Source: Verrucomicrobiales bacterium (GTDB taxonomy: Bacteria > Verrucomicrobiota > Verrucomicrobiia > Verrucomicrobiales > V1-33). From it: a DNA stretch of 64,000 bases. The notes beneath the pieces were generated by a model. That model searched no databases, was not told the DNA's origin, and was given only the letters and a program-made list of their open reading frames with translations. The first letter of the stretch is position 1; each line of letters starts with the position of its first letter. The DNA lies in assembly GCA_050998515.1 (NCBI GenBank), contig JBPCQC010000019.1, positions 200,357-264,356 on the forward strand, in the 5' to 3' direction. The position numbers and the translations under genes were made by a program. This document shows, in pieces, positions 1,137 through 47,848 of the stretch.

Positions 1137-3953
1137 ATGGCTGTCCCTAATCCAGAATTGCCGCTTGCGGACAGGCGCCGTTACGTCCGCGCCGTTGGCC
1201 CGCGTCTGCACATTCTGCTCGGTATAGTGTTTGCGCTCGTGGCGCTGCTCGGCGCAAACTCGCTCTATCTCGTGAGCATTACGCTCCTCGAGTGGTTTCA
1301 AGGCCTTTCCTACCAGAACTATTTCTACCAGTTCATGTTCCTCGCGCATCTGGTGCTTGGGTTGCTGCTGGTGGTCCCATTCATCGTTTTTGGCGCGTGT
1401 CATATTCGCAACGCGCATGACCGGCCAAACCGCCGTGCCGTGCGGGTAGGCTATGCCCTTTTGTTGACCAGCCTGATTCTGTTATTCAGCGGTATCGCCT
1501 TGATGCGCGTGAGTGGATTCGAGATTAGAAACCCGCATACCCGGTCGGCAGCTTACTGGGCGCATGTTATCACGCCGCTACTTGCCGTGTGGCTATATGT
1601 GCTGCACCGCCTCGCCGGCCCCCGCATCAAATGGCGCGCCGGACTGCGCTGGGGAATTGCGGTGGTCGCGGTCGTCGCGGCTCTCGTCGTGTTGCACGCA
1701 CAGGATCCCCGCAAGTGGAACGCCGTTGGCCCCAAGGAAGGCGCCAGGTATTTCGAACCGTCGCTCGCGCGGACCGCAACCGGGAACTTCATCCCGGCAA
1801 AGACGCTTCAGATGAACGAATATTGCATGCAGTGTCACAAGGACACTTACGACAATTGGTTTCATAGCGTGCACCACTTCAGTTCCTTCAATAACAAGCC
1901 ATATCTTTTCAGTGTGAAGGAAACGCGAGAGGTTGCCTTGAAGCGCGACGGCAATGTCCAGGCCGCGCGCTGGTGCGCCGGATGTCATGACCCGGTGCCG
2001 TTTTTCAGCGGCGCCTTCGATGACCCGAACTTCGACCTCGAAAAACACCCGACCTCACAAGCAGGCATCACCTGCACGGTGTGCCATTCCATCACCCATG
2101 TGAACAGCACGCGCGGCAATGCTGACTTCACCATCGAAGAGCCCACTCATTACCCCTTCGCCACGAGCGAAAACCCCATCCTGCAATATATCAATCAGCA
2201 ACTGGTCAAGGCCAAGCCGGACTTCCATAAGGCTATGTTCCTCAAACCGCTGCACAAATCGGCAGAGTTCTGTTCGACCTGCCACAAGGTTTCGATTCCC
2301 TACGCGCTGAACCATTACAAGGAATTCCTGCGCGGGCAGAATCACTACGACGGTTTCCTTCTGAGCGGGGTTTCCGGGCACAACGCGCGCAGTTTTTATT
2401 ATCCCGAAAAGGCGAAAAACAATTGTGCTGAGTGTCATATGCCCCTGGTGGCCTCGAATGACTTCGGAGCGAAATTCAACGACCCGGCAAAGCCGGGTGA
2501 ATTAAACGTTCACAATCACCTCTTCCCCGCGGCGAATACTGGCATCGCCGATATCCGCGGCGCGCCCGAGGTCGTAAAAGCGCACCAGGCGGTGTTGAAA
2601 GACTCGGTTCGCGTGGACCTCTTCGCGCTCAAAGAGGGCGGCGCGATCGATGGCAAACTGATCGCGCCGTTGCGGCCACTGATACCGGCGCTCCAGCCGG
2701 GCAAAACGTATCTGCTCGAAGTCGTCCTCCGCACCCTGAAAGTGGGACATCCGTTTACCCAAGGCACGGCCGATTCCAACGAGGTATGGTTGGATGCGCG
2801 AATGGAGAGCGAAAACAAGGTGCTCGGACGCAGTGGCGGGCTCGGCCCGCATAATGCCGTCGATCCCTGGTCGCATTTTGTTAATGTCTATATGCTCGAC
2901 CGCCACGGCAAGCGAATCGACCGCCGCAACCCGCAGGACATTTTTACACCGCTTTACAATCATCAAATACCGCCCGGTGCGGCGCAAATCGTTCATTACT
3001 CTTTCAAGGTTCCCGACGCGCAGCGGGAACCGCTAACGATCGAGCTCAAGCTCCAGTACCGAAAGTTCGATACCACGTTTATGCAGTATGTTTTTGGAAA
3101 AGAGTATGTGAACAAGCTTCCCGTTACCACCATCTCATCCGATCGGATCGTCTTTCCCATCGAGTCCGCGCCACTCTCGACGGTCGGCCCACAACTCTCG
3201 GCTATCCCACCGTGGCAGCGGTGGAACGATTACGGCATCGGCCTATTGCTCGAGGGCGACAGAGGCGCCGAGAAGGGTGAACTCGCGCAGGCCGAGCAGG
3301 CATTTTTGCAGGTCGAACAGGCTGGGAAGGTCGATGGTCCGCTCAACCTGGCTCGGGTTTTCCTAAAGGAAGGCCGGTTGGAAGATGCCGTGGCGGCATT
3401 GCAGCGGACGGCAACGTTTGATCCGCCCGCTCCGCGCTGGACCGTGGCCTGGCTCACCGGCCTGGTTAACAAGCAAAACGGTTTTCTAGACAAGGCTATC
3501 GCTGAGTTCCGCAGCATCCTCGAAGATCGCTATCCCGAACTGGACCAGCGCGGGTTCGACTTCAGCAAGGATTACGAAGTGATCAACGAACTCGGCCAAA
3601 CCCTCGTCGAACGCGCAAAAATGGATCGGGGGTCGGAATCAGAACAGCGCACGTGGCTGCTGGCTGCAATGGAACGATTTGAAAGAACGCTGACCCTCGA
3701 TTCCGAGAACCTCACCGCGCACTACAACCTCGCGCTCATTCATGAACAGCTTGGTGATGCCCAGCGCGCTACCGAACATCGCAAATTGCATGAGCGCTAC
3801 CGGCCGGATGACAACGCGCGGGACCGCGCAATCGGTATTGCCCGGCGGGCCAATCCGGCGGCCGATCATGCCGCGCAGGCGATCGTGATTTACGACTTGC
3901 ACCGTTTGGGCGCGCCAGAATTGCCAGAGTCAACGACGGCGCTTGCCCGGTGA
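1137..3953 (+). CDS. Membrane-anchored multiheme c-type cytochrome with C-terminal TPR region
   Basis: 938-aa ORF with an ATG start. The N-terminal ~190 aa carries several hydrophobic helices. There are five CxxCH heme-binding motifs (CMQCH, CAGCH, CTVCH, CSTCH, CAECH). The C-terminal part has TPR-like repeats (e.g. AHYNLALIHEQLGDAQRA). Confidence 0.75.
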   Translation: MAVPNPELPLADRRRYVRAVGPRLHILLGIVFALVALLGANSLYLVSITLLEWFQGLSYQNYFYQFMFLAHLVLGLLLVVPFIVFGACHIRNAHDRPNRRAVRVGYALLLTSLILLFSGIALMRVSGFEIRNPHTRSAAYWAHVITPLLAVWLYVLHRLAGPRIKWRAGLRWGIAVVAVVAALVVLHAQDPRKWNAVGPKEGARYFEPSLARTATGNFIPAKTLQMNEYCMQCHKDTYDNWFHSVHHFSSFNNKPYLFSVKETREVALKRDGNVQAARWCAGCHDPVPFFSGAFDDPNFDLEKHPTSQAGITCTVCHSITHVNSTRGNADFTIEEPTHYPFATSENPILQYINQQLVKAKPDFHKAMFLKPLHKSAEFCSTCHKVSIPYALNHYKEFLRGQNHYDGFLLSGVSGHNARSFYYPEKAKNNCAECHMPLVASNDFGAKFNDPAKPGELNVHNHLFPAANTGIADIRGAPEVVKAHQAVLKDSVRVDLFALKEGGAIDGKLIAPLRPLIPALQPGKTYLLEVVLRTLKVGHPFTQGTADSNEVWLDARMESENKVLGRSGGLGPHNAVDPWSHFVNVYMLDRHGKRIDRRNPQDIFTPLYNHQIPPGAAQIVHYSFKVPDAQREPLTIELKLQYRKFDTTFMQYVFGKEYVNKLPVTTISSDRIVFPIESAPLSTVGPQLSAIPPWQRWNDYGIGLLLEGDRGAEKGELAQAEQAFLQVEQAGKVDGPLNLARVFLKEGRLEDAVAALQRTATFDPPAPRWTVAWLTGLVNKQNGFLDKAIAEFRSILEDRYPELDQRGFDFSKDYEVINELGQTLVERAKMDRGSESEQRTWLLAAMERFERTLTLDSENLTAHYNLALIHEQLGDAQRATEHRKLHERYRPDDNARDRAIGIARRANPAADHAAQAIVIYDLHRLGAPELPESTTALAR

Positions 3954-26001: not shown

Positions 26002-27547
26002 ACTACCAGGAAGCCGGAAGTATGTCGGTGCGCGTAGGAAACGAATTGGCGCACTCGGGCTGGCACTGTTGCTGGCGGTTTCCAGTCTCGCGGCCAGCAA
26101 GTCACCGCTCGCCGACGCCGCCGAGAAATCAGATCGCGCAATCATCCGCGCGCTTCTCAAACAACAGGCTGATGTGAACGCGCCGCAGGCCGATGGCATG
26201 ACCGCGCTGCACTGGGCGGCATACCTCGATGATCTCGAAACCGCGAATCTCCTCGCCGAAGCTAACGCGGACGTCAAGGCGACGAACCGTTATGGCGTAA
26301 CGCCGCTTTCTCTTGCCTGCCAAAACGGGAACGCGGCGATGGCCGAACTTCTTCTCGAACGCGGCGCTGACCCAAACACCACTCTGCGCGGCGGCGAAAC
26401 CGTACTAATGACCGCGGCGCGCACGGGCAAGGTCGGCCCGGTAAAGGCACTGCTATCGCGCGGCGCAACCGTTGACGCCAAAGAACGACGCGGACAGACT
26501 GCGTTGATGTGGGCGGCAGCGGACGGGCATGCCGCCGTGGTTGAATTGTTGCTTAACGCCGGTGCGGAGTATCTCGCACCGTTAACCGACTCGGGCTTTA
26601 CGCCGTTGTTCTTTGCCGCGCGCGACGGCCGGACTGATGTTGTTCGCGCCTTGTTGAATGCGGGAGTGGACGTGAACGAGGCCATGCAGCCCCGCAAGTC
26701 TTCGGGCAAAGGCCCGAGGAAGGGAACCAGCGCGTTGATTCTCGCGGTCGAGAACGGTCATTTCGATCTTGCACTGGAACTGATCGAAGCGGGGGCTGAT
26801 CTGAATGACCAGCGTCCGGAATTCACCGCGCTTCACGTGATGACCTGGGTTCGCAAACCGCAGCGCGGCGAAGACGACGGTGATCCAGCTCCATTGGGGT
26901 CAGGCAATTTGAGCAGCGTCGAATTCATCAGGAAGCTGGTCCAGCGCGGCGCGGATGTGAATGCGCAGTTGAAGAATGGCAAGGGTGGGCCGGGTCTATA
27001 CAACAAGCTCGGCGCAACACCTTTCCTGATGGCCGCCGCAACTGCGGACACCGTTTACATGCGCTTGCTGGTCGAGTTGGGTGCCAAACCGTTGCTGGGG
27101 AATGTCGATAACTGCACGCCGCTCATGGTCGCGTGCGGAATCGGGGTCGGGTCTGCCGCCGCGAATGAAACAGCCGGAGAGGAGCCTGAAGTGCTCGAAG
27201 CAGCGCAATTGGCCCTGGATCTCGGCGTTGATGTGAATGCGGTCGATGCCAACGGCGAAACCGCCATGCACGGCGCAGCCTACAAGAATCTCCCGAAGGT
27301 GGTGCAGTTCCTGGCCGATAAGGGAGCGAAGGTCGAGATTTGGAACCGAAAGAACAAGTATGGCTGGACACCATTATTGATCGCGGAGGGCCACCGACCT
27401 GGAAACTTCAAGCCATCGTTCGAAACGATCGCCGCGCTCCACCGTGTCATGCAAGCCGCGGGCGTGACACCGCCATCCGCCACACCACCCGCATCCGCCA
27501 AACGCGACGGGTATCCGGCCGACGGAGGAAAAAAATCCGCGCCTTGA
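25964..27547 (+). CDS. Secreted ankyrin-repeat protein
   Basis: The hydrophobic signal is RKRIGALGLALLLAVSSLAA. At least 9 ankyrin repeats follow (GMTALHWAAY..., GVTPLSLACQNGN..., GQTALMWAAADGH..., and others). The start codon is uncertain (ATG at 25964, overlapping the DUF433 3' end). Confidence 0.8.
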   Translation: MKLSWIVRSRTCELPGSRKYVGARRKRIGALGLALLLAVSSLAASKSPLADAAEKSDRAIIRALLKQQADVNAPQADGMTALHWAAYLDDLETANLLAEANADVKATNRYGVTPLSLACQNGNAAMAELLLERGADPNTTLRGGETVLMTAARTGKVGPVKALLSRGATVDAKERRGQTALMWAAADGHAAVVELLLNAGAEYLAPLTDSGFTPLFFAARDGRTDVVRALLNAGVDVNEAMQPRKSSGKGPRKGTSALILAVENGHFDLALELIEAGADLNDQRPEFTALHVMTWVRKPQRGEDDGDPAPLGSGNLSSVEFIRKLVQRGADVNAQLKNGKGGPGLYNKLGATPFLMAAATADTVYMRLLVELGAKPLLGNVDNCTPLMVACGIGVGSAAANETAGEEPEVLEAAQLALDLGVDVNAVDANGETAMHGAAYKNLPKVVQFLADKGAKVEIWNRKNKYGWTPLLIAEGHRPGNFKPSFETIAALHRVMQAAGVTPPSATPPASAKRDGYPADGGKKSAP

Positions 27548-27647
27548 AGTTCAAAGATCGCGTTATCTCGACCACTGGTCAGCGCTGACCAATGCTAATG
27601 TCGTTCTAAGATCGAGTGCAATTTTAGTGATGCGAGTGATTCGTCCC

Positions 27648-27719
27648 GTCGCTGAAATGACGTGGCAGCGACACTCCTGTCGCTGAGCCGTATTCAGTCA
27701 GCGACAAGAGTGTCGCTGC
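27648..27719. promoter_or_regulatory. Array of five alternating GTCGCTG / CAGCGAC heptamers, forming two CAGCGAC-N6-GTCGCTG palindromes and a 21/22-bp hairpin
   Basis: GTCGCTG occurs at 27648, 27679 and 27712. CAGCGAC occurs at 27666 and 27699. Arms 27665-27686 and 27698-27719 are reverse complements with one mismatch. The array lies ~70 nt upstream of the DUF1080 start. A related 14-bp perfect palindrome, GGTCAGCGCTGACC, sits at 27577-27590. Confidence 0.45.
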
Positions 27720-27789
27720 TACACAACGCCGTGCGTACTGATAAACATTGGGATTTGACGCGGGGCAGTGGTCGATTCAACCTCAACGC

Positions 27790-28632
27790 ATGAAGCCCGT
27801 TTCGAATCACATTTTCTCTTCCCGTGGAGCATCAAGACGCGCTGCTGTTTCAATGACCGTGCTTATCGCGATGGCGGTGGGGACTTTCTCGGTTCTGCGT
27901 GCCGCAGAACCAAAATTCCAAGCGGCGTGGCGACCGCTGCCGTTGATCGCTGAGGGAAAAATAGACCCGGGTTGGATGCCTATCGGCTGGGGTGGTTTCG
28001 TTGTTGATGATGGTGCGCTGCGAACGGAGTGCGATCCCAAGGGACTTGGATTGCTGGTTTATAAAAAGGAGCGCTTGGGGAACTGTCAGCTCCGCGTCGT
28101 TTTTAAGACAAAAGACGCCAGGTCAAACTCCGGGTTTTATGTGCGGATTGCAGACGGGATTCTGGATCAAGCCAAAACCCCGGGCGCGGCGTTTGATCGC
28201 GACACGGCTGGAAAGACTTCACCAGAGTCCATGCAGAAGATGAAGGAATCGGGCGAACGCGAAGAGGGACCGTGGTTCGCCGTGCACCGCGGGTACGAAG
28301 TTCAGATCGCCGGTGACTCGCCTCATGGCACCGGCGCCATTTATTCGCTCGCCACCGCATCCGGTGTGCCAAAAAAAGCGCCTGGCGAATGGAGAACGAT
28401 GATTGTTACGCTCGCCGGCAATCGCATCTTCGTGGACCTCGATGGGCAACGGATCACCAGTTTTGATCCGGCAAGTCCCGAGCTGCCGCCGCGAAAGCAA
28501 TGGCACGAGCCGAAACGCGAGCCGAAGCGGCCCGAATCCGGCTACATCGGCTTGCAAACCCACGACCCGGGTGACGTCGTCTGGTTCAAGGAAGTCAGCG
28601 TCCGGCCATTGACGCCTGCCAGCGCGAAGTGA
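27790..28632 (+). CDS. DUF1080 (3-keto-disaccharide hydrolase-like) domain protein
   Basis: ATG at 27790. It has a signal/TM segment (AAVSMTVLIAMAVGTFSVLRA). The motifs NSGFYVRI, YEVQI, GAIYSLA and GYIGLQTHDPGDVVWFKEV are typical of DUF1080. Confidence 0.75.
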   Translation: MKPVSNHIFSSRGASRRAAVSMTVLIAMAVGTFSVLRAAEPKFQAAWRPLPLIAEGKIDPGWMPIGWGGFVVDDGALRTECDPKGLGLLVYKKERLGNCQLRVVFKTKDARSNSGFYVRIADGILDQAKTPGAAFDRDTAGKTSPESMQKMKESGEREEGPWFAVHRGYEVQIAGDSPHGTGAIYSLATASGVPKKAPGEWRTMIVTLAGNRIFVDLDGQRITSFDPASPELPPRKQWHEPKREPKRPESGYIGLQTHDPGDVVWFKEVSVRPLTPASAK

Positions 28633-28670
28633 TTGCCTGATACCGCCTGGAGCAAATTGTGGCCGCGCGC

Positions 28671-30515
28671 TCAGCAGAGCCGTTTCACTTCCGTGCCGAT
28701 CAGGCAGACGTCGTCTGCGAACTCTTTGTCGACCGAAAACTCCCGGATTTCAGCGAGCACTTGGGAAAGCAGATCGGCGGGAGGGACGTCGAGGCGTTGC
28801 TGCACGGCGCTGATCAGGCGATCATGGCTGTAGGGCCGACCGCCCACTCCCTCGACCTCGAACAGGCCATCAGTGAAAAGAATGATAAGGTCGCCAGCGG
28901 AAATCGGCTGCTGGAAGGTGACGAACTCGGCATCCTCGAACAGCCCGAGTGCCGGTCCAGTTCTGCCATCGTTGCGCAGCGGCACCACTTCACGGCTTCG
29001 TAATTTCACGTGCAAAGGATGCGGATGACTCGCATTCGCGAAAAGAACCTGCGCCCGTGCCACGTCGACGACGAGATAAAAGGCGGTGGCGTACATCGTC
29101 GTTCCCGTCTGTTGAAGGATGCTCGCCAGCCCGCGGTTGATTCGGCCGAGCAACTGACCGGGGTCAGTGGCCCGGCTGCTTTCCTCCTCGACGAGCGCGC
29201 GCATCATCGCTGTCACGAGGGCCGCTCGGACACCATGCCCCATCACGTCGCAAATGAAGACGCCCACCGCAGAATCCGAAAGCGGCAAGACGTCGAAGAA
29301 GTCGCCACTGACACTGCCGGTTGGGTAATAGAAGCTGAAAAATTTCAGGGCGCTTTCGCTGGCATCGTGCGGTATGCGTGGGAACTGCTGCGGAAGCATA
29401 GCCATTTGCAACTCGCGGGCCATGGTGAGGTCCTCTTCCATTTGTTCGTTCTTTTCCTGCAACTGGCGGGTGCGTTCGATGACGCGTTGTTCCAGTTGCT
29501 CATTGAGGGCGCGCAGTTCAGCCTGGGCGTCATTGCGCTCGGCCTCGGCGCGGTCGAGCCGTCCGCCCACCCGCGCCGCCACGCGTGAGATGATAAATCC
29601 AATCGCCACCGCAAAGACGATCGCGGCCAACGCCGACAACAGGACGGGGTTGATGTGGAATCGCGCAAGGACCCGTGCTCGCACGGCACCGTCAACGAGG
29701 ACCGCTGCCACTGTGATCGGCAGAAACCAACGCAGCAGCAGCGCGCGCGTCGTTTGCCCGATCAAAGTTCGCAGTGGCCAGCTCTCCGGCCCCGCCGCAG
29801 CGATCATGCCCAAACCGAGGCATAGAAATGCCAAAGCGGTTGGAAGCGCCACCGGAATAATGGTTCCGCCATAGAGAAGCGGCGTGCCATAGAGATAGCC
29901 GAGCAAAACCACCACGCTCGCCCCCATCACGATCGCGGCAAGCAGCGCGCCCCAGCGCCACCACCGCCGCAGGATCAGAAATATCATCCCCATTCCCGCG
30001 AGAAGAAAAATGCCCGCCGTGAATGGTGACATTCGCCCGGTGGGCACCGCGCCAAACAGTTCCGGCGAACGCACGAGAAGTTCCTCGAGTCCGAAACTGG
30101 TGCGGGTGGCAAATTCGATGAGCTTGCTGGTCGCCAGTCCGACCACGAGGGCACTCGCACCAATGGCGATGAGTCGGGCACGGCGGCCTGCGTTGAGCCA
30201 GGTTCGGAGAAGCAGCGCCGTCCCAAGGAATCCGAAGCCGAGCGCCGTGCTGGGGGCCATTGGAATGTAGTGGGCATGCGCACTGGCCAGCACATGCAGT
30301 CCCGTGATCCACGCGATCAGCGTCAGAAAACCCAGCGCCACCACGACCAAGCTGCACCAGCGCGACAGGCGGCAAAACGACGCTGGAAGAAATTCCTCCC
30401 GCGACTCGCCAGCGATCAGATGCGGCGCGAGATAACTCAAAGTCTCATCCCGACGTATTGCCTGCCCATCCTCGGCAGCGCAATTTTCACTTGGTTCTCG
30501 AATAGCACCGGGCAT
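28671..30515 (-). CDS. Membrane-integrated PP2C/SpoIIE-family serine phosphatase (RsbU-like)
   Basis: 614 aa. The N-terminal ~330 aa has about 8-10 TM helices, followed by a coiled-coil linker. The C-terminal PP2C motifs are GDFFDV, ICDVMGHG and LFTDGLFE. Confidence 0.8.
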   Translation of the reverse strand: MPGAIREPSENCAAEDGQAIRRDETLSYLAPHLIAGESREEFLPASFCRLSRWCSLVVVALGFLTLIAWITGLHVLASAHAHYIPMAPSTALGFGFLGTALLLRTWLNAGRRARLIAIGASALVVGLATSKLIEFATRTSFGLEELLVRSPELFGAVPTGRMSPFTAGIFLLAGMGMIFLILRRWWRWGALLAAIVMGASVVVLLGYLYGTPLLYGGTIIPVALPTALAFLCLGLGMIAAAGPESWPLRTLIGQTTRALLLRWFLPITVAAVLVDGAVRARVLARFHINPVLLSALAAIVFAVAIGFIISRVAARVGGRLDRAEAERNDAQAELRALNEQLEQRVIERTRQLQEKNEQMEEDLTMARELQMAMLPQQFPRIPHDASESALKFFSFYYPTGSVSGDFFDVLPLSDSAVGVFICDVMGHGVRAALVTAMMRALVEEESSRATDPGQLLGRINRGLASILQQTGTTMYATAFYLVVDVARAQVLFANASHPHPLHVKLRSREVVPLRNDGRTGPALGLFEDAEFVTFQQPISAGDLIILFTDGLFEVEGVGGRPYSHDRLISAVQQRLDVPPADLLSQVLAEIREFSVDKEFADDVCLIGTEVKRLC

Positions 30516-30577
30516 ACTGGAAACAGAAGTTGTTTGGTTGGAACGGCGGGCGGTTGTATGGTCGAGAACCAGAATCG

Positions 30578-31153
30578 ATGAACAGTCCCTCGGTCATCTA
30601 TGTGGCTTCGAGCGACGCGGGAGTTTTTGTGCGTGTCGTGGGCAAGGGCTGTTATCAAAACAGTCCGCCGTTGCGCCGGTTCATGCAACAACTGCTGCAG
30701 GAGGGCGCGGGCGATCTCTACGTCGATCTTGGCGCCTGCCGTGCCATGGACAGCACATTTCTGGGTGTCCTGGCCGGATTCGGTCTCGGTCTGCGGCGAT
30801 CCGCGCAACCGCATGGCACGCTCTGCCTCTTCAACGTCAATGACGCTCAATCTGCCTCGTTGCAAACGCTCGGACTGGATCGGCTCGCACAAATTGCGTG
30901 TGGCCGCCCACCGCTGGAGGCAGACCACGTACCCGCCGAGGCGCAGTATCACGTCCTGCCCGGCACAGAACTCACTGCCCAGGGCAGGCCGCAAAACAAA
31001 ATCGAATCGACCGAGTGCATGCTCGAAGCGCACGAAAATCTTTGCGCCGCCGATGAACGCAACCAGTCGAAGTTTGCCGACGTCACCCGCTTCCTGCGCC
31101 AGGAAATCACCGAGCAGCAGAAAAAAGCCGAAGAAAAACCAAGCTTGCCGTAA
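30578..31153 (+). CDS. STAS-domain protein (anti-sigma-factor-antagonist-like) with C-terminal extension
   Basis: ATG at 30578. The motif YVDLGACRAMDSTFLGVLAG resembles the phosphorylatable DSSG/DSTxLG motif of SpoIIAA/RsbV. It is transcribed divergently from the PP2C gene. The extra ~85 aa at the C-terminus are unassigned. Confidence 0.55.
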   Translation: MNSPSVIYVASSDAGVFVRVVGKGCYQNSPPLRRFMQQLLQEGAGDLYVDLGACRAMDSTFLGVLAGFGLGLRRSAQPHGTLCLFNVNDAQSASLQTLGLDRLAQIACGRPPLEADHVPAEAQYHVLPGTELTAQGRPQNKIESTECMLEAHENLCAADERNQSKFADVTRFLRQEITEQQKKAEEKPSLP

Positions 31154-31482
31154 CCGGCATCTATGTGCCTCATGGACTGGAGGTTGTCCATTCTCATGAA
31201 AACATCGGCTGTTACCCAACGACGAAACGAGCATCCGCCCCCCCGCAGATGCCTGCGCCTGCAGAATAACGCATCTTAACAACCTCTCTACTGGCATCGG
31301 CTGGCGTGCGGTAGCGAAGCTTGAACGTGCGGAACGACGCCTAGAAAGGACACTGACGCATTTTTCGTGTCCTTTACAAACGGCGGCAGATTGCCGGCCC
31401 ACAATTTGCCCTACAAACATGGTATGTAGGGGTTCGCCAGAGGCGAAGGAGGATTTCGCGGCTCAACGACGCGCTACTGGCT

Positions 31483-31638
31483 CCCGCACGTGTTCGGGCT
31501 TAGCGCCCGACTTCGCGCTTTTTCCTCCGGCTACCGGGTGTCTGCCATGACTAACCGTCAGTTGCGACCACCAAAAAGCGCGAAGTCGGCCGCTCAGACA
31601 CGGGGTAGCCGATGTCTTTCGCCCTTCACACGTGCGGG
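31483..31638. repeat. Nested and interleaved inverted repeats (possible structured RNA or element relic)
   Basis: A 10-bp inverted repeat pairs 31483-31492 with 31629-31638. A 17-bp perfect inverted repeat (CCGACTTCGCGCTTTTT) pairs 31507-31523 with 31573-31589. A 15/17 inverted repeat pairs 31528-31544 with 31595-31611 and is interleaved with the 17-bp pair. The region lies in a 750-nt gap with no convincing coding sequence. Confidence 0.5.
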
Positions 31639-31906
31639 GTCACGACTGCCTTCACATCACAACCAGTTCTATCACACCCAACTCCACCACGACGGCTTCG
31701 CCAATGCGAAGCCCGCACGTCCTCGTCCAAAAGGGCGAAGGCTGCGCAGCAGCCGGCGGACGACTTGCTTTGTAATAGCGCAGCTCACACCAAAATCGTG
31801 TGATCACGATACAAAAATGAGAGTTGGCACGAGTTCCTCTTGGCCCGTTAATCCGGCTACTTGAAAAACATCCAAGGAGCTGACCGGAGGCCGCGTCGGC
31901 AGCCCC

Positions 31907-32910
31907 ATGAATACGCGCGGTATCATCACGTCAATGACAACCTCAGAGAAATGTCTGGGACAGTTGAAAGTAACGAGCAATTCTCGACTAAGTTTCTGGG
32001 CTAAGACCGATTCGGATGGAAATCCCGGCACCACGGTTCGCGATCATTGCATTAATGTCGGATGCGTGGCAGAAGCGCTGCTCGGAGCACTTCCGGACAC
32101 CGTCCGCCCTCTGCTCCCGCCCGGTGCCGCCACGCTCGCAGCGCTCCATGATGCCGGGAAGATATCGCTCGGCTTTCAGGTGAAGTGCGCGGCGTGGATC
32201 GCGCGGAATGGACTCACGGAAACGGCGGTGCGGGAGCGATGGGCCTCGCCTCAGCAAGCTGAGAGCGATCATGCGAAAATCACGCAAGCGTTTTTGCAAG
32301 CTGCCATGAAGCCGCTGGGCGGCGCATCGGCTGATCGCCGCGGGCGTGAATGACGGCATCTATTTCGCGCTGCCCACGCAGGTTACGAGCAACCGCATCC
32401 ATGAGCGCGTCGCGCCCTTCCTGCGCGCGGCGCTCGAGGACTCGGCCACGCTGCGGCTCGCGCACGGCGCTTCGTGGCTTGAGGATTGTCAGACGCTGCG
32501 CCTGCATCCTGCGGCGCCGGGCGATCCGGATGCCAGCGAGCACGTCCGCGAAGGCCGCTCATGGTTTGCCTCGGCGAAGCATGCTCTGCTCGCGCGCTTC
32601 GGCGTCGGCACCGTCGATCAGGCGCTCCAGGGCGTCGTGGCGGTAAAGCACTTCTTCGTGCGCCGCTTCGGCCTCGCGGGGAAGGTCGTCATCCTCGATG
32701 AAGTCCACAGCTACGATGTCTATACCGGCACGCTCATCACGCGTCTCATTCGCGAGCTGCTCGCGTTGCGCTGCTCGGTCGTCGTCCTCTCCGCCACGCT
32801 GACGCGGGCGCGCCGCGCCGAGCTCATCGCCGCGGCAGACGCCGATCCCGGGAGCGCGCGCTCCGAGGCGTATCCGTTGCTCACCGTGGCGAGAGCGTGC
32901 GGAGTCCGCC
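31907..32910 (+). pseudogene. cas3: cas3 relic (type I-E): HD-domain start, frameshift, ~170-codon internal deletion, 3' truncation
   Basis: 31907-32353 encodes an HD-domain N-terminus (SFWAKTD...LAALHDAGKISLGFQ) that aligns with the intact Cas3. A second frame from ~32306 encodes helicase motifs (IYFALPTQVTSN..., VVILDEVHSYD, VVVLSATLT, YPLLTVA). The HHG residues and the Walker A (GEGKT) segment are missing, and similarity ends near 32904. Confidence 0.75.
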
Positions 32911-33039
32911 ATCGGCTTTCGGTCCCACGAGTTCGACGTCGTTTTGGAAGCGCGCGACGCGCGGCTGGTGAAAGATGGGGAGATCGACTCGCGGGGCGGA
33001 GGCCTTACCGACCCCGGCCCGCGCCGGCAGCGCCGGTTC

Positions 33040-33294
33040 TCACAAGGTTCGGCGGCGGCGCGAAGGATTGGCGCAGCCGCGCAGCACTTCCTCGAGCGGA
33101 ACTGTCAACCCGGCCGCGTGCTCTGCCACCGGCTCTTGGAAGAGTTTATCCAACGGGCCGCCGGGCCGGGCGTCCTCCTCCATCTCTGCGTCCCAAACGA
33201 ACTCCTGGCGCTCATCGAGCCACTTTGCCAGGCTCCAAAACTCTTTTCGCGGAAGCTCCTCGATGGCTTTCTGGATTGCGGCCAATGTGTTCAT
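33040..33294 (-). CDS. Small antitoxin-like protein (orphan)
   Basis: ATG at 33294 gives 84 aa, MNTLAAIQKAIEELPRKEFWSLAKWLDERQEFVWDAEMEEDARPGGPLDKLFQEPVAEHAAGLTVPLEEVL.... This is the pattern of a widespread small antitoxin-like family. It lies between the cas3 relic and the intact cas3, on the opposite strand. It corresponds to the 3' end of the artefactual 440-aa antisense ORF in the track. Confidence 0.5.
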   Translation of the reverse strand: MNTLAAIQKAIEELPRKEFWSLAKWLDERQEFVWDAEMEEDARPGGPLDKLFQEPVAEHAAGLTVPLEEVLRGCANPSRRRRTL

Positions 33295-33342
33295 GATCGC
33301 GACCCTATGTTCGCAGTCGCGGGCGCTCAAATCTGATCTGAA

Positions 33343-36093
33343 ATGGAATTGAACACTCCTCCATCCGCCGCTGACGATCCCGCTCCGTTCACGGACTACT
33401 TCTGGGCGAAGACGGATCCCATCACCGGTGCTCCGGCACGGACGGTCACGGAGCACTCTTTCCAGGCTGGAGCTGTGGCGGAGTGTCTTTGGGCGGTGCT
33501 TGGGGAGCCGGTGATCGCGCTGTTGCCGCGGGGCAGCGTGACGCTCGCGGCCTTGCACGATGTCGGGAAGCTGACGATCGGATTTCAGCTGCAGTGCGGA
33601 GTCTGGAAGCCGCCGGAAGCGATCCGCACGGCGATGGCCGGTGCGGCGGCGCGTGACTCGATTTCGCGGCACGCGACGCTTTCGCAACGCGATCTCGAAC
33701 TGCGGCTCGGCAAGGCGCGAGCGTGGGCGCGGGCTATCGGTGCGCATCATGGCGCGTTCACCGAAGGCGGGAAGCGGGAGGATTTGCGTGCGTTGTTCGA
33801 CCCGATCCGGGGTGCGCTGGTCGAGCGGATTGTGCAGAGATTCGGTGCGTTGCCGGTCGTCCCGCCGGCCACGGGGCGGGATGCGAAGGTGGCGCAACTT
33901 TGCTGCCTCGCGGGCTTCATCGTGCTCGTCGATTGGATCGCGTCCGATGAACGCAACTTTCCGCTCGCGGCCCCATCGCTTTTTAGCAGGCCATTTACGG
34001 GTCACGATCTGGAGCTCGCGGAGGAGAAAGCTCGTGAAGCGGTCGCGGCGCTGCGTCTCGCCGCACCTCGGTTGAAGGCTGGGTGTGCGTTCCAGGAGTA
34101 TGTCGGGAAGCCTCCCTATCCCTTGCAGGAAAAGGCTCTCGAACACATCGCCGGGCCAGGACTCTACATCGTCGAAGCGGCGATGGGTGAGGGGAAGACC
34201 GAGGCGGCGCTGGCGGCGGCGTATCGCAATATCGAGCGCGGTCTGGCCCGCGGATTTTACTTCGCGCTGCCCACGCAGCTCACCTCGAATGAAATCCACC
34301 GGCGCACGCGGGAGATTTTCTCGCGCCTGGTCGAAAGCGACGCGCCGATGCCGCTCGCGCATTCGGCTTCATGGCTCACCCAACCCGATCGCCTCATCCT
34401 GCATCCCGCAGTGCCTCAAGATGCCGATCAAGACGAGATCGAACAGGCGGTGCAGCATCTGCGCGCCGCTCGTGCCTGGCTCACGTCGCGCAAGGCGTTG
34501 CTGGCGCCATTCGGCGTGGGCACCATCGATCAGGCGCTGATGGCGACCCTTCCGGTGAAGTTTGCGCACCTGCGGCTCTTCGGCCTCGCGGGAAAGGTGA
34601 TCATCTTCGACGAAGTCCACAGCTACGACACCTACACGAGCGCGATTCTCGAGGCGCTGATTCGGCTGCTGCTGGAGTTGCACTGCACAGTCGTCGTCCT
34701 CTCGGCCACGCTCACCCGCCGGCAGCGCGATTGCCTGCTGCGAGCGGCGACCGACGTCGAGCCCGAATCGAAAGACGAGCGCTGGGAAAAATATCCGCTG
34801 CTCTCGATCGCGAGGAAGGGCGCTCCTCCCGAGCCGGTCACAATTGAGGAATCGAACGCGCGCAATCGGACCGTTCTTCTGACGCATGTCACGATGGCTG
34901 ATCCCTCGTTAAGCACCGACGTGCTCGCGACCATCGAGCAGCGGGTGAAAGAGAACTTTTGCGTGCTCATCATCCGCAACACCGTGGCTCTGGCGCAGGA
35001 GACATATCGTGAGGTGAAAGGACTGCTCAACGAAGCCGACGATGCAGAGCGCGTGGGCCTGCTGCACAGCCGCTATCCTTACTTCCAACGCTTCGGCCAT
35101 CCCGATCGCGCCGCCGATCGGGGACGCGAAGCGCGCTGGGTCGAGCGGCTCGGGAAAGAGCGCCAGCATCGGCCATCCGGGGGCTGTGTGCTGGTGGCGA
35201 CGCAAGTCGTCGAGCAGTCGGTGGACGTGGATGCCGACCTGCTCATCACCGATCTTTGTCCTACCGATCAGCTTCTCCAGCGCATCGGCCGGCTGCATCG
35301 CCACCCGGAACCGCGAACGCTGCTCGCGACGCGAGCGGAGGCGATCCTCTTGCATCCCGTGCTGCCGCAGCCGAGCGAAGCAGACCCCGCGGAATGGAAA
35401 CGAGCGCTCAAGCCGCACGGCAATCTGTATGCGCCGTATGTCTTGCTGCGGACAGAAGTGCTCTGGAGGAAAAACATCGCGATCAACTTGCCGCAAGACA
35501 TTCGCCCGCTGCTGGAGGCCACCTATGCGGCTCCAGCGGATGATGAACCCGCTGATTGGAGCACGCTTGCCGACGAGCTCCAAAAGCGCCGCGACACGCT
35601 GACGGCCAAGGCGCAAGCCTTCGCCAGCAGCCTTGGCAAACCGCCTGAGTCCGACGACGAAAACACGGCTCCGACGCGCTGGATCGACTGCCCGACTCTC
35701 GATCTCGTGCTCTTGCGGTCCCGCCCAGAGGTGCAGCCTGGTGGAAAGATCGAGCTGCACTTCCTCGACGGCGCGATCCTCCACTGGCACCCGCGGGCGG
35801 GTTGGGATCACGAGGTTGCACGCGCCGTTTTCATCAACAGCGTGCGCATCCCGGCCTATCTCTTTGCCAAGACCGAGGCCCCCGATTGGCTCCACACCCA
35901 CACGCACGGCCTGGCTGGCGCGGCTTGGAAAGCTGACCGCGGCACGCTCATGAACTGCGCCGACGGATCGACCCTGCCCTTGCGCTACTGCGACGCGGAA
36001 GGCGTGGTCGCGATCGGAAAAGCTGCCAAGACATCGTCTTTCCCGGGCGAGGCCGCCGAATTTCCCGAGGACGAGGAAGACGGTTTCAACTGA
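33343..36093 (+). CDS. cas3: Cas3 HD nuclease / DExH helicase, type I-E
   Basis: 916 aa. HD motifs are present (LAALHDVGK, IGAHHG). Helicase motifs are present (AAMGEGKT, IIFDEVHSY, VLSATL, QVVEQSVDVD, IGRLHR). It heads the cas operon. Confidence 0.92.
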   Translation: MELNTPPSAADDPAPFTDYFWAKTDPITGAPARTVTEHSFQAGAVAECLWAVLGEPVIALLPRGSVTLAALHDVGKLTIGFQLQCGVWKPPEAIRTAMAGAAARDSISRHATLSQRDLELRLGKARAWARAIGAHHGAFTEGGKREDLRALFDPIRGALVERIVQRFGALPVVPPATGRDAKVAQLCCLAGFIVLVDWIASDERNFPLAAPSLFSRPFTGHDLELAEEKAREAVAALRLAAPRLKAGCAFQEYVGKPPYPLQEKALEHIAGPGLYIVEAAMGEGKTEAALAAAYRNIERGLARGFYFALPTQLTSNEIHRRTREIFSRLVESDAPMPLAHSASWLTQPDRLILHPAVPQDADQDEIEQAVQHLRAARAWLTSRKALLAPFGVGTIDQALMATLPVKFAHLRLFGLAGKVIIFDEVHSYDTYTSAILEALIRLLLELHCTVVVLSATLTRRQRDCLLRAATDVEPESKDERWEKYPLLSIARKGAPPEPVTIEESNARNRTVLLTHVTMADPSLSTDVLATIEQRVKENFCVLIIRNTVALAQETYREVKGLLNEADDAERVGLLHSRYPYFQRFGHPDRAADRGREARWVERLGKERQHRPSGGCVLVATQVVEQSVDVDADLLITDLCPTDQLLQRIGRLHRHPEPRTLLATRAEAILLHPVLPQPSEADPAEWKRALKPHGNLYAPYVLLRTEVLWRKNIAINLPQDIRPLLEATYAAPADDEPADWSTLADELQKRRDTLTAKAQAFASSLGKPPESDDENTAPTRWIDCPTLDLVLLRSRPEVQPGGKIELHFLDGAILHWHPRAGWDHEVARAVFINSVRIPAYLFAKTEAPDWLHTHTHGLAGAAWKADRGTLMNCADGSTLPLRYCDAEGVVAIGKAAKTSSFPGEAAEFPEDEEDGFN

Positions 36094-43001: not shown

Positions 43002-46000
43002 GTTCTCCCCACCCGCGTGGGGATGGTCCGACCGTCTCTCATGACACCATAGCCGTCAAGCTGTTCTCCCCACCCGCGTGGGGATGGTCCGCTCATCAGC
43101 AAACCGCGTCGAATAATCATACAGTTCTCCCCACCCGCGTGGGGATGGTCCGGCGGAGCGCACCGGGTAAGCCAGCTCTTCTTTGTTCTCCCCACCCGCG
43201 TGGGGATGGTCCGCCACTGACGTTGTTGAGCGCGCCACGCAGGCCGTTCTCCCCACCCGCGTGGGGATGGTCCGCGCATCCCAGGCGTCCGGATCGCGCG
43301 TGCGGGGTTCTCCCCACCCGCGTGGGGATGGTCCGGTTTCGAGCTGGGGCAATCTGCAGCCGGTCTCGTTCTCCCCACCCGCGTGGGGATGGTCCGTGGA
43401 TCGTCGCACCGTTTGCAATCGCATGGCTGTTCTCCCCACCCGCGTGGGGATGGTCCGGATTCCCGATCCGGCGCGCTGGGGTAATTTCAGTTCTCCCCAC
43501 CCGCGTGGGGATGGTCCGCTGGTCGAGCTTCTGAATAACGAACTGCGCATGTTCTCCCCACCCGCGTGGGGATGGTCCGTATGTCGCACTCTATGCGAGA
43601 TTTATTTTGCGGTTCTCCCCACCCGCGTGGGGATGGTCCGCGCTGTTCCGTCGGCGGCTTTGGCTTTCAGTTGTTCTCCCCACCCGCGTGGGGATGGTCC
43701 GGGTGGATGGACCGGCGATTTCATCGCGACACCGTTCTCCCCACCCGCGTGGGGATGGTCCGCCGGGTGTGGGCGCTCGACTGGATGATGATGTGTTCTC
43801 CCCACCCGCGTGGGGATGGTCCGCGGCGCCGGCCGCGGTCTCCGGGCAGCGGAAAGTTCTCCCCACCCGCGTGGGGATGGTCCGCAATGTTAATCGAAGG
43901 CGTTGATGAGAACGAGGTTCTCCCCACCCGCGTGGGGATGGTCCGCGGCTCTCGCTTAAGGCTGGTGCTTGGGCAGCGTTCTCCCCACCCGCGTGGGGAT
44001 GGTCCGGGTAGGGGCTGAGCTGCCCCCGGCCCCTTCCTGTTCTCCCCACCCGCGTGGGGATGGTCCGGACATCGGAGAGCGCGTCATCGATGAGAAGGGG
44101 TTCTCCCCACCCGCGTGGGGATGGTCCGATCCTCGAGCAGGAAGGCCTCACGCTGCCGAAGTTCTCCCCACCCGCGTGGGGATGGTCCGCGCTTTTGGAT
44201 GTTGCCGTGGATATCGAGGATGTTCTCCCCACCCGCGTGGGGATGGTCCGACATGGTGGCTCACCACGGTTACCTTCCGCTAGTTCTCCCCACCCGCGTG
44301 GGGATGGTCCGTTATTCGACGATGGAGCGTCTTGGTAGATTTTGTTCTCCCCACCCGCGTGGGGATGGTCCGGGCAACCGCATCCTCGTGCGCAAACAGG
44401 CAACGTTCTCCCCACCCGCGTGGGGATGGTCCGAAATGACTCAGGCTCCTAACTTCGCACGCACCGTTCTCCCCACCCGCGTGGGGATGGTCCGGGGCCG
44501 GTGGAGGTGAATGAGAAGACGGTGGAGTTCTCCCCACCCGCGTGGGGATGGTCCGGTAAAATCCAGAGCGACTGCCATGTAGTTGTTGTTCTCCCCACCC
44601 GCGTGGGGATGGTCCGCGCAGCATCAGCCACAACGAGATTGTGACGGTGTTCTCCCCACCCGCGTGGGGATGGTCCGCATATTTTCTGGCAGTGGGTGTG
44701 CTCATGGGCGTTCTCCCCACCCGCGTGGGGATGGTCCGTGACAGTGGAAACAGAGGATGAGGACGTGCTGGTTCTCCCCACCCGCGTGGGGATGGTCCGT
44801 CCTCGTCGCTGTCGGCCATCTTTACCAGGTAGTTCTCCCCACCCGCGTGGGGATGGTCCGCCCTTCTTGCGCACGCGCTTCATTTCGCGCGAGTTCTCCC
44901 CACCCGCGTGGGGATGGTCCGGGCAGCAACTGGTCGGAGTTACCACCGGAAAGGTTCTCCCCACCCGCGTGGGGATGGTCCGATCGAGATCGCCGCGGCC
45001 AAGGTCCGTAATGGGTTCTCCCCACCCGCGTGGGGATGGTCCGGCGCGCGGCACCAAGGTGGCAGATGGCTCCACGTTCTCCCCACCCGCGTGGGGATGG
45101 TCCGTCGGCGGCGGCGATGGCTTCATTGAGCAGGAGGTTCTCCCCACCCGCGTGGGGATGGTCCGGAATCGAGGAATTGATGCGCCAGGTTGCGGACGTT
45201 CTCCCCACCCGCGTGGGGATGGTCCGAATGGTGAGGACCTGGCTGAGCGTTTGGCGCAGTTCTCCCCACCCGCGTGGGGATGGTCCGGGATTCGGGAAGC
45301 CATCGTCATGCACCACGAGGTTCTCCCCACCCGCGTGGGGATGGTCCGCAAACGTTCGCGGCGCAGGAGCGCGTCTTTTAGTTCTCCCCACCCGCGTGGG
45401 GATGGTCCGACCTCGCGCGGGGCCATCAGGCGCGGGCGGCAGTTCTCCCCACCCGCGTGGGGATGGTCCGGTGGTGGATGTGCCTGCCGCTCCGGGCGCT
45501 CCGTTCTCCCCACCCGCGTGGGGATGGTCCGCAATCCCGCGGCGGAGAGGCACAACAGCAGTTGTTCTCCCCACCCGCGTGGGGATGGTCCGATGGCGCG
45601 CTCCCCGGGGCGGTCGATATCATCGTTCTCCCCACCCGCGTGGGGATGGTCCGTCTTCCTCGCTGTCCGCCATCTTCACCAGGTAGTTCTCCCCACCCGC
45701 GTGGGGATGGTCCGTGGGCGAGTTCAAGCCGCCGTTTCCACTGCGGGTTCTCCCCACCCGCGTGGGGATGGTCCGAAATGGAGGCGAGCATGAGTAAAAA
45801 CAACGGCGTTCTCCCCACCCGCGTGGGGATGGTCCGGACGTCATGAAGGAGCAGTGACCCGGCGTTCTGTTCTCCCCACCCGCGTGGGGATGGTCCGCAA
45901 ACCAACTCAGCAAAGACCAATCAAACGCCGTTCTCCCCACCCGCGTGGGGATGGTCCGACTCGAGGCGCCCTTCTGGCCATCGCCCCTGAGTTCTCCCCA

Positions 46001-47848
46001 CCCGCGTGGGGATGGTCCGACACCCCGAGCGCCCGAGCTTTCCGCAGCCGCGTTCTCCCCACCCGCGTGGGGATGGTCCGAAAAGTTCCATGCCCCACCG
46101 CTCGCGGCAATCGTTCTCCCCACCCGCGTGGGGATGGTCCGAAGAACGAGCACCTTGGCGGCGGGCGATGACTGTTCTCCCCACCCGCGTGGGGATGGTC
46201 CGCTGGAACCATCGCGATCACTCCCGCGGCTGCTGTTCTCCCCACCCGCGTGGGGATGGTCCGCACATGAAGATCCACTGGCTCCTATCGAGACTGTTCT
46301 CCCCACCCGCGTGGGGATGGTCCGCGAGAGCCGCTTGATCCACCCGGTCTTGTCGAGTTCTCCCCACCCGCGTGGGGATGGTCCGTCAATACACTATATT
46401 GGGTCGTTATGATGGTCGTTCTCCCCACCCGCGTGGGGATGGTCCGCGGGGCGAGCAGCTCGTATGAGTGGTGCGAATGTTCTCCCCACCCGCGTGGGGA
46501 TGGTCCGTCTGGCGGCAAGGCCACCGGAGCGCTGCGCCGGTTCTCCCCACCCGCGTGGGGATGGTCCGCGCCATCTGCTCGTAATCCCCTGTTCCAGCCA
46601 GTTCTCCCCACCCGCGTGGGGATGGTCCGCAGAAGCACCCGCGCTATTCCTGGGTGGCGCTGTTCTCCCCACCCGCGTGGGGATGGTCCGTTGCCGGGCG
46701 GGCAGGTGCCCATCACTAGCACGTTCTCCCCACCCGCGTGGGGATGGTCCGGCCCGCGGCGGCGGGTGATGCGGCGGCGGGTGGTTCTCCCCACCCGCGT
46801 GGGGATGGTCCGCATCTTGAAACGCTTGTCGAAACACGGGTGTCGTTCTCCCCACCCGCGTGGGGATGGTCCGGCGGGCGATTCCTTGAGGAGGTCCTGG
46901 TCGACGTTCTCCCCACCCGCGTGGGGATGGTCCGAGTCCTTGCCTCCGGTAAAGCTGAGCCGCGGTGTTCTCCCCACCCGCGTGGGGATGGTCCGGATAA
47001 TTATACTGGCGCCTGGCAACTCTGCTGGTTCTCCCCACCCGCGTGGGGATGGTCCGAAGCTCGGACAGATCATCGACGTTTATGTCGGGTTCTCCCCACC
47101 CGCGTGGGGATGGTCCGGCTGGCGGCTTTCTGCCGAGTCAGAAACCTTCGTTCTCCCCACCCGCGTGGGGATGGTCCGAGATCGAGCGCCTCGAGCGGGG
47201 TGAGTCGCCGTTCTCCCCACCCGCGTGGGGATGGTCCGTGGCCATAGTCATCGACTACCGACATCAGCCGGTTCTCCCCACCCGCGTGGGGATGGTCCGC
47301 TCAGCGTTTCGCTGTGCGCTCCCTCTGAAATGTTCTCCCCACCCGCGTGGGGATGGTCCGGAACTCCTGTGTTGGACATCCAGTAGTAGCCGGTTCTCCC
47401 CACCCGCGTGGGGATGGTCCGCAACCTGACCAGTCTTAACGCGTCCAACCTTTGTTCTCCCCACCCGCGTGGGGATGGTCCGGTGGTCTCATTCATGGGA
47501 TTCACGTTGATCCGGTTCTCCCCACCCGCGTGGGGGTGGTCCGGGCCTCGCCAAGATGTTTGCCGGCACGCCGGCGTTCTCCCCACCCGCGTGGGGATGG
47601 TCCGGCGGATCACAATACGACTGCGACGGGGACGGAGTTCTCCCCACCCGCGTGGGGATGGTCCGTTCATCGAAAACCGCTCGCGTCACCGCAGGCTGTT
47701 CTCCCCACCCGCGTGGGGATGGTCCGCCGTTTAAGTGAGCGATTAGTGAGTCGAAGGTGTTCTCCCCACCCGCGTGGGGATGGTCCGTTGTAGGCGGCGA
47801 GGGCTTTCTTTTGAGCGGGGTTCTCCCCACCCGCGTTCCGTCTACCTT
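43002..47848 (+). CRISPR. Type I-E CRISPR array: 80 repeats of 29 nt (GTTCTCCCCACCCGCGTGGGGATGGTCCG), 79 spacers
   Basis: Every repeat was enumerated by hand. The period is 61 nt from 43002 to 47150, one 60-nt unit follows (31-nt spacer at 47179-47209), then the period is 61 nt to 47820. The repeat has the palindromic core CCCCAC-CCGC-GTGGGG and ends ...CCG, like the E. coli I-E repeat in the transcribed orientation. Repeat 75 carries A>G at 47536. The terminal repeat (47820-47848) keeps only the first 17 nt. Confidence 0.97.

Follow-up and report, generated by a model that had tools for sequence, protein, structure and literature searches.

A putative origin-of-transfer module of Verrucomicrobial mobile elements beside a type I-E CRISPR-Cas locus

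Large inverted repeats accompanied by short direct repeats are found in pAM373 of Enterococcus faecalis, a plasmid typed MOBC. In this plasmid, two perfect inverted repeats, an outer one of 18 nt and an inner one of 25 nt, span 142 bp and are directly followed by five 12-nt direct repeats, the whole set lying between coupling-protein-like and replication-relaxation genes. We take these repeats, located between the coupling-protein and relaxase genes, to agree with the published description of the pAD1/pAM373 oriT. In the case of pAD1, Francia and Clewell are said to have placed the nick (oriT2) within the large repeat in 2002, with the short repeats determining specificity. Additionally, a preprint covering six proteobacterial species, and not Verrucomicrobia, describes many genomic islands that carry only an oriT ('iOriT') and have defence genes nearby (Ares-Arroyo et al. 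2026; bioRxiv 10.64898/2026.01.13.699239). For Verrucomicrobiota, no described oriT was found in the literature searched.

The locus considered here belongs to a window, i.e. the whole 64-kb stretch of Verrucomicrobiales DNA that was analysed, in which a highly structured non-coding element precedes a type I-E CRISPR-Cas locus. There is very good support for regarding this element as one copy of a cis-acting module that is conserved in transfer elements of Verrucomicrobia. The likeness to pAM373 lies in a large two-tier inverted repeat that has short direct repeats alongside and is found beside coupling-protein and Replic_Relax genes. In the window copy, the two-tier inverted repeat spans 156 bp, with outer arms of 11-20 nt, inner arms of 25 nt and a central spacer of 49 nt that bears conserved motifs, whereas the spacer of pAM373 has 27 nt. 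The two arrangements also differ in that the module lies upstream of both genes rather than between them, and in that pAM373 is AT-rich and the module GC-rich, with no sequence similarity between the two regions. The relaxases of pAM373 and of the Verrucomicrobial elements, likewise, share no pairwise BLASTP similarity and are linked through the Pfam profile only.

The first-pass annotation had described an element of ~155 nt built on a 17-bp perfect inverted repeat, with a second, interleaved pair and a third one enclosing both. All these pairs were found in the window, where the helices follow the 5′ to 3′ order C A B A′ B′ C′. In pair A, the core arms 31507-31523 and 31573-31589 are perfect reverse complements over 17 positions, and the repeat extends to a full length of 25 nt at 92% (31499-31523 / 31573-31597). 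Pair B matches at 15/17 positions (31528-31544 versus 31595-31611), while pair C is complete (11/11; 31483-31493 / 31628-31638) and extended by a GGGC/GCCC step at 31496-31499 / 31621-31624. The three hairpins flanking the element were confirmed as well, at 31345-31375, 31409-31431 (formerly given as 31410-31432) and 31433-31447. Folding exceeded that of dinucleotide shuffles on each strand, with z of -7.0 and -5.5 for the two strands as RNA and of -7.2 and -8.9 as DNA. The chance of a 17-mer repeat was recomputed as ~4e-4 (~6.4e6 position pairs x 4^-17), which makes the order of 1e-4 first proposed a reasonable one; since the element is conserved, the estimate is irrelevant to its interpretation. 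The ORF at 31490-31864, already considered unconvincing, had no match in the Pfam search, and the 'homologous ORFs' found in other copies only reflect the conservation of the DNA. The features of the window copy are the following.

31409..31786, + strand: the whole conserved non-coding module, delimited by the family HMM, the subfamily HMM and BLASTN to the L008 copy; + is the orientation in which the coupling-protein gene comes next in parent elements.
31409..31431, no strand: H1, the sequence-conserved palindrome CCCTACAWAC-ATG-GTWTGTAGGG, kept in 46/46 full copies.
31433..31447, no strand: H2 hairpin, TTCGCC/GGCGAA here, conserved in position and variable in sequence.
31457..31473, no strand: H3, a small hairpin around the conserved GGCTCAAC motif, from the alignment.
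31483..31499, no strand: 5′ half of outer arm C, CCCGCACGTGT plus GGGC, pairing with 31621-31638.
31499..31523, no strand: 5′ half of inner arm A, containing the invariant motif CCGACTTCGCGCTTTTT, from the inverted-repeat and covariation analysis.
31524..31572, no strand: apical region, with the conserved GGCTAYCGGG (= B, 31528-31544) and the CTAACCG loop hairpin (31548-31560).
31573..31597, no strand: 3′ half of the inner arm, A′, pairing with arm A.
31595..31617, no strand: variable hairpin slot H6, which holds B′ (31595-31611) in the window.
31621..31638, no strand: 3′ half of the outer arm, C′, pairing with arm C.
31758..31768, + strand: degenerate third, forward copy of the inner-arm motif, GGACGACTTGC (family: ACGACTTCGCGC), from the motif census and the subfamily HMM.

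The most upstream hairpin, 31345-31375, consists of AAAGGACAC/GTGTCCTTT, with AAAGGACAC at 31345-31353, and this 9-mer or its complement recurs at variable distance upstream of the module in L022, L030, L079, L003, L035, L043, L065 and L010. Its candidacy as a conserved upstream motif, raised by the subfamily alignment, was dropped because a sequence this short had no statistical support.

Relatives of the element were sought with two scans. In genomes, with one genome per species, an exact pattern of 12+12 nt of the inner arms retrieved 17 loci, namely 16 loci of Verrucomicrobiota MAGs and 1 chance match, while in metagenomes, where only the innermost 11+11 nt of the arms were fixed, 77 stretches were obtained. 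A family HMM built from the genome-scan set gathered 63 copies with the window counted in (52 distinct sequences), from Verrucomicrobiota MAGs and metagenomes. The window matched this model with 163.7 bits (E 1.5e-48) over 31409-31645, and it was 82% identical to the L008 copy by BLASTN over 31409-31647. Additionally, a subfamily HMM built without the window matched it at 31667-31766 (envelope 31652-31786; E 1.1e-6). Thus, by HMM homology, the conserved unit is ~370 nt long (31409 to ~31786) and takes in H1 and H2, the homology up to ~31786 being seen in the window's subfamily. The structured element of ~155 nt is real, and it was drawn too small. A hint from MAFFT that 31800-31900 might be homologous to the promoter or leader of the coupling-protein gene was rejected, as the HMM searches gave no support past ~31786.

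Within the 64-kb window, no second copy was found by BLASTN-short, pattern search or nhmmer, and the genome scan yielded one or two copies per MAG, mostly one. The module had no BLASTN match among 72,556 plasmid and 50,697 phage records, and no match in viral contigs. The module family thus appears undescribed in the collections and literature searched. As a side observation, L001, a Logan contig of SRR33880242, is identical to the window, covers 27096-31636 and ends in the outer arm; other assemblies that break inside the module are L010/L018, L012, L052 and L057. Such breaks could result from the palindrome, or from the presence of the module in more than one context within the community.

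The conservation of the helices was evaluated in an alignment of 46 full-length copies and 267 columns. Taken together, H1, C and A were paired in 90% of cells, versus 37-58% in slid controls, and they contained 71 doubly compensated cells versus 26 in shuffles, with 0/500 shuffles reaching the observed covariation, so that covariation in relatives was found for all three helices. Stem C was paired in 99.6% of cells across the 46 copies, with 23 doubly changed cells versus 1 singly changed; two of its positions are doubly compensated (G-C to C-G, 8/38; C-G to A-T, 14/32) and none is one-sided. In H1, compensated T-A/A-T and A-T/G-C swaps were observed among the 46 full copies, and this conserved palindrome is probably a protein-binding site. 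In the inner arm, a compensated C-G/G-C swap at 31507/31589 (38/8) is the only departure from an invariant sequence, whereas the encoded proteins are just 59-90% identical. Part of this invariance follows from the scans themselves, which demanded exact matches (12+12 nt and 11+11 nt); even so, the 6-7 outer nt of the arms, which the metagenome pattern left unconstrained, vary at that one swap only. Positions 31506/31590, within the otherwise perfect inner stem, are unpaired in 34/46 copies, window included; in the window, as in the copies that were inspected, the mismatch is C.C, and it might mark a recognition or cleavage feature.

A different pattern was observed in H2 and in H6, the hairpin between A′ and C′, where a hairpin is kept while its sequence changes completely. 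The H2 position holds different palindromes in other copies, e.g. GCGCGGATCGCGC and GTGCGAACCGCAC, and the H6 slot holds unrelated hairpins, mostly with a TATC loop. The stem of H3, in turn, is CGCG/CGCG in the window copy and GGCTC/GAGCC in most copies. Regarding pair B, which had been interpreted as one half of a pseudoknot or of two competing helices, B:B′ pairs in 52% of cells versus 51% in shuffles in the 46-sequence alignment, and an alignment-free scan recovered 15/17 in the window only, with at most 12/17 in the 45 other full-length copies. The reverse complement of B′ is a near copy of B (CGGCTACCCCGTGTCTG versus CGGCTACCGGGTGTCTG), and B′, which is thus an inverted near-copy of B, also has a local fold of its own (AGACA/TGTCT). 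The variable hairpin usual at that position has here been supplanted by this duplication, which is inverted and lineage-specific. Since B:B′ is confined to the window copy, there is no conserved pseudoknot or switch; moreover, we infer that an H-type pseudoknot cannot be built from 17-25 bp stems joined by loops of 4 and 0 nt.

The genes beside the module establish the kind of element to which it belongs. The right flank extends for 900 nt or more in 42 copies, and in 30 of these a coupling-protein gene comes next on the same strand; this gene of ~430 aa lies 480-680 nt from the start of H1, and its product matches TrwB_AAD_bind (E 8e-11), TraG-D_C and TraD-like models. A Replic_Relax (PF13814) gene comes after it, with E of 1e-17 to 2e-20, and CONJscan assigns proteins with this profile to the MobC relaxase superfamily (PMC5357655). 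In L030, the module and the coupling-protein gene are followed by a directly adjacent Replic_Relax gene and then a DnaG-like primase gene, and ArdC and RadC genes were also found in parent elements. Upstream of the module, an HTH_36 (Rep-like) gene is present in 18/31 copies and absent in the window-like subfamily (L008, L030); because of this gene, a replication or regulatory role of the module has to be kept in view. The gap before the relaxase gene, considered as a better oriT candidate, was ruled out, being occupied by coding sequence (a small gene and an XRE-type HTH gene), so that, apart from the module, no large non-coding region is left among the transfer genes. In addition, parent elements carry a conserved extended -10 promoter (TGnTAnAAT) after the module and ahead of the coupling-protein gene, showing that the module is not the 5′ UTR of this gene. 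Each parent element was visible over at most 15 kb, so another oriT could lie elsewhere in it.

Two further arrangements were noticed in these elements. In L004, L009, L011, L024, L056 and others, the leader of the coupling-protein gene is conserved 3′ of TGnTAnAAT, from ~170 to 1 nt before the start codon, and carries CAGCCGCC, which is complementary to GGCGGCTG, a sequence overlapping the GGAG ribosome-binding site. This leader may be a cis-regulatory 5′ UTR, and it is not retained in the window. In L009, L024, L056, L070 and others, two small divergent genes, one of unknown type and one of XRE-type HTH, lie between a 150-aa gene and the relaxase gene, separated from each other by a conserved palindrome, a TAACTATAGTTAGGT-like operator, and a TGGTAAAAT promoter directly precedes the relaxase start.

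It could be argued that the module is a structured non-coding RNA of the mobile element, for instance a regulatory sRNA or an antisense RNA for transfer or replication genes, of which the window copy would be a stranded gene. Strong RNA folding (z -7.0 and -5.5), the compensatory changes in C, A and H1, a + strand of H2 on which G-T slightly outnumbers A-C, and the preservation of the H2 and H6 hairpins under free sequence change, which implies selection on intramolecular pairing, are in agreement with this possibility. However, over all predicted pairs, 39 G-T and 25 A-C cells were counted among ~2,900, with no overall strand bias; the long stems are essentially pure Watson-Crick, one-sided G-T changes being almost absent and double changes occurring with essentially no G-U intermediates, and both strands of the module fold equally well. 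Watson-Crick pairing without strand bias is better accounted for by a DNA hairpin or cruciform than by RNA. Furthermore, Rfam 15 returned no match at either gathering or permissive thresholds (best sub-threshold scores of 10-16 bits versus cut-offs of 47-106), ARAGORN found no tRNA or tmRNA in the window, neither a conserved promoter upstream nor a terminator downstream of the module was found, and the conserved promoter of the next gene lies downstream of the module. Perfect helices of 17-25 bp and a motif repeated threefold also resemble protein-recognition DNA: in most copies, the motif census detected a third, forward inner-arm motif, ACGACTTCGCGC, 85-185 nt beyond A′, and CTATCG occurs 3-5 times in one orientation in main-subfamily copies. 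The invariant arm, the repeated motifs and the pairing pattern therefore point to recognition of DNA by proteins, in combination with a hairpin or cruciform, and an RNA gene seems unlikely. The sRNA or RNA regulator of the cas promoter proposed in the first-pass annotation loses its footing with the same evidence, and the idea of a 3′-UTR element of the STAS gene fails because no other copy lies near STAS or SpoIIE homologues.

An improbable explanation, to much the same degree, is another cis-acting replication site, either an sso/ssi/Frpo-like single-stranded DNA promoter or a vegetative origin served by the HTH_36 protein. Indeed, ssoA, Frpo and the module are all structured non-coding sites of mobile DNA, of 150-300 nt, acting as folded single strands, and the size and heavy secondary structure of the module are typical of sso/Frpo sites. 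The HTH_36 gene in 18/31 copies, a DnaG-like primase belonging to one parent element and short direct repeats that could be iterons can be read in the same sense. Nevertheless, the association with coupling-protein and relaxase genes (30/42) is tighter than that with HTH_36 and persists in L008 and L030, which lack it; the ssoA and Frpo sites are strand-specific and bear promoter-like or RSB/CS-6 motifs, whereas the module is strand-symmetric, both of its strands folding equally, and has neither these motifs nor -35/-10-like sequences in its stems. The region is also G+C-rich, without an AT-rich unwinding region or DnaA boxes. Least probable of all, and indeed very unlikely, is that the module represents a recombination or attachment site, a MITE-like repeat, or a fortuitous or rearrangement-derived palindrome at the island boundary. 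Its location at the G+C boundary of the CRISPR-Cas island, the existence of truncated copies (L003; L016 and L044, which abut kdp genes) and the assemblies that break inside the module, including the Logan contig ending at 31636, would be expected from such sites. On the other hand, chromosomal full modules are flanked on both sides by element genes and were thus not split by integration, neither integrase nor direct repeat occurs at the far end of the island, and chance is excluded by conservation in 52 distinct copies. Like REP/MITE repeats, the module is intergenic, palindromic and present in many genomes; unlike them, it is single-copy per region, tied to one operon, ~370 nt long and composed of several sub-elements, without terminal duplications. 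Consequently, the relic of a small mobile or palindromic element suggested earlier for this boundary holds insofar as the element is a copy of a mobile-element module, and probably not as a MITE-like repeat, given one copy in the 64 kb and one or two, mostly one, in the MAGs scanned, the unit of ~370 nt and the lack of terminal duplications or att-like repeats.

On balance, we favour by a modest degree the reading of the module as the putative oriT of an undescribed family of Verrucomicrobial integrated conjugative or mobilizable elements. In the family, the relaxase and coupling-protein genes are adjacent and the module is non-coding, as expected of an oriT, while the window copy has no such neighbours. 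As the module shows no similarity to described oriT sequences, no known oriT family can be named for it, and such similarity is not needed for function. Under this oriT reading, relaxosome proteins would recognise short repeats, namely CGACTTCGCGC (three copies, the middle one reversed), CTAYCG repeated directly 3-5 times and the H1 palindrome, while the two-tier inverted repeat of ~156 bp would extrude as a hairpin or cruciform. The relaxase (MOBC-class, Replic_Relax) would then nick one strand in or beside the inverted repeat, and a VirD4/TrwB-type coupling ATPase would pass the nicked strand to the type IV secretion system. Finally, the hairpin may form again to serve termination and recircularisation.

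The window copy is an orphan in which all conserved helices are intact. On its left lie a SpoIIE-type phosphatase gene on the - strand and the STAS gene, which ends at 31153. On its right, adjacent ORFs at 31907-33296 encode a Cas3 HD fragment and a helicase fragment. An intact cas3 lies at 33343-36093, and the fragments share only 52-54% identity with it, which indicates that they are the relic of another cas3 and not a recent duplicate. The intact gene is followed by cse1, the remaining type I-E genes and, at 43122-47789, a CRISPR array. The presence of a decayed second cas3 directly upstream of the type I-E operon suggests that CRISPR-Cas loci were replaced or stacked here. The CRISPR-Cas island is higher in G+C than its flanks, with the module at the G+C boundary, and the decayed cas3 and the type I-E locus occupy the usual place of the coupling-protein gene. 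In the whole 64 kb, neither transfer genes nor proteins of the parent element are encoded. Past the array, no integrase was found, the genes there belonging to the DMFA2_C and LMF1 families, and no significant att-like or terminal direct repeats were detected between the two island edges. The closest genomes (Roseimicrobium, with 62% identity for the SpoIIE protein) had no conservation of gene order from which the island limits could be drawn by synteny. The last full CRISPR repeat is followed at 47790-47840 by a terminal, degenerate one (GTTCTCCCCACCCGCGTTCCGTC...), a common feature of the trailer end of arrays. A Cas-regulating mini-CRISPR of the CreR/CreA kind was searched for and discarded, since nothing outside the array came within 8 mismatches of the 29-nt repeat, and nothing of the sort was present in 31154-33400.

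Orphan copies were also found elsewhere. L018, L035 and L043 adjoin HNH_2 genes, and the three share a common downstream HNH gene with 86-89% identity in different samples. The cargo lies at 1169-3376 from H1 in L018, at 1520-2235 in L035/L043 and at -3786 to 2115 in L079, an orphan accompanied by a DUF3800 and a TIR-domain protein; two HNH_2 endonuclease genes and a DUF772 transposase are also among the cargo of orphan copies. L052 presumably adjoins an IS66-family transposase, as judged by eye. L003 is a truncated copy, and the truncated copy of L016/L044 abuts kdpA and a response-regulator gene; the two end at different internal points, one after AAAAAGCGCGAAG and the other inside the variable hairpin (L003 ~1593; L016/L044 ~4514), and the MAG of L016 also has a full copy, L011, on a different contig. 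The orphans beside shared HNH cargo suggest a recurrent island made of module plus cargo. In comparison with iOriT islands, the window copy likewise resembles an oriT-like region of the helper type (82% to L008, in which the coupling-protein gene comes next) without relaxase or secretion genes nearby, and adjoins cargo that includes defence systems; unlike them, the window has no delimiting att repeats and no integrase. The window copy is either the inert remnant of an eroded element or a handle acting in cis that would let a resident member of the family mobilise the DNA beside it.

Taken together, the stretch upstream of the cas genes is most likely a mobile-element footprint beside CRISPR-Cas and not a new RNA gene, which avoids its annotation as an sRNA, riboswitch or pseudoknot. 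The oriT is a kind of site already known, and it is this module family that appears undescribed; it provides Verrucomicrobiota with an easily recognised candidate oriT, together with its cognate coupling protein and MOBC relaxase. To our knowledge, genetic tools for Verrucomicrobiota are scarce, and the pair of oriT and relaxase, if validated, would be usable for conjugative DNA delivery. The orphan at the CRISPR-Cas edge and the orphans beside defence-like genes fit the travel of islands that carry only an oriT, for which they offer a concrete test case, and we know of no such oriT-only hitchhiker islands in Verrucomicrobia. A bolder proposal, to which we give little credence, is that the orphan copy is a working oriT from which resident MOBC elements of this family would act in trans to mobilise the chromosome next to it, with the complete type I-E locus as the first or the last part. 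If true, L018/L035/L043 (HNH) and L079 (DUF3800, TIR) would constitute a family of oriT-only hitchhiker islands, and mobilisation from orphan oriT copies would represent a conjugative route for CRISPR-Cas and defence cargo in Verrucomicrobia.
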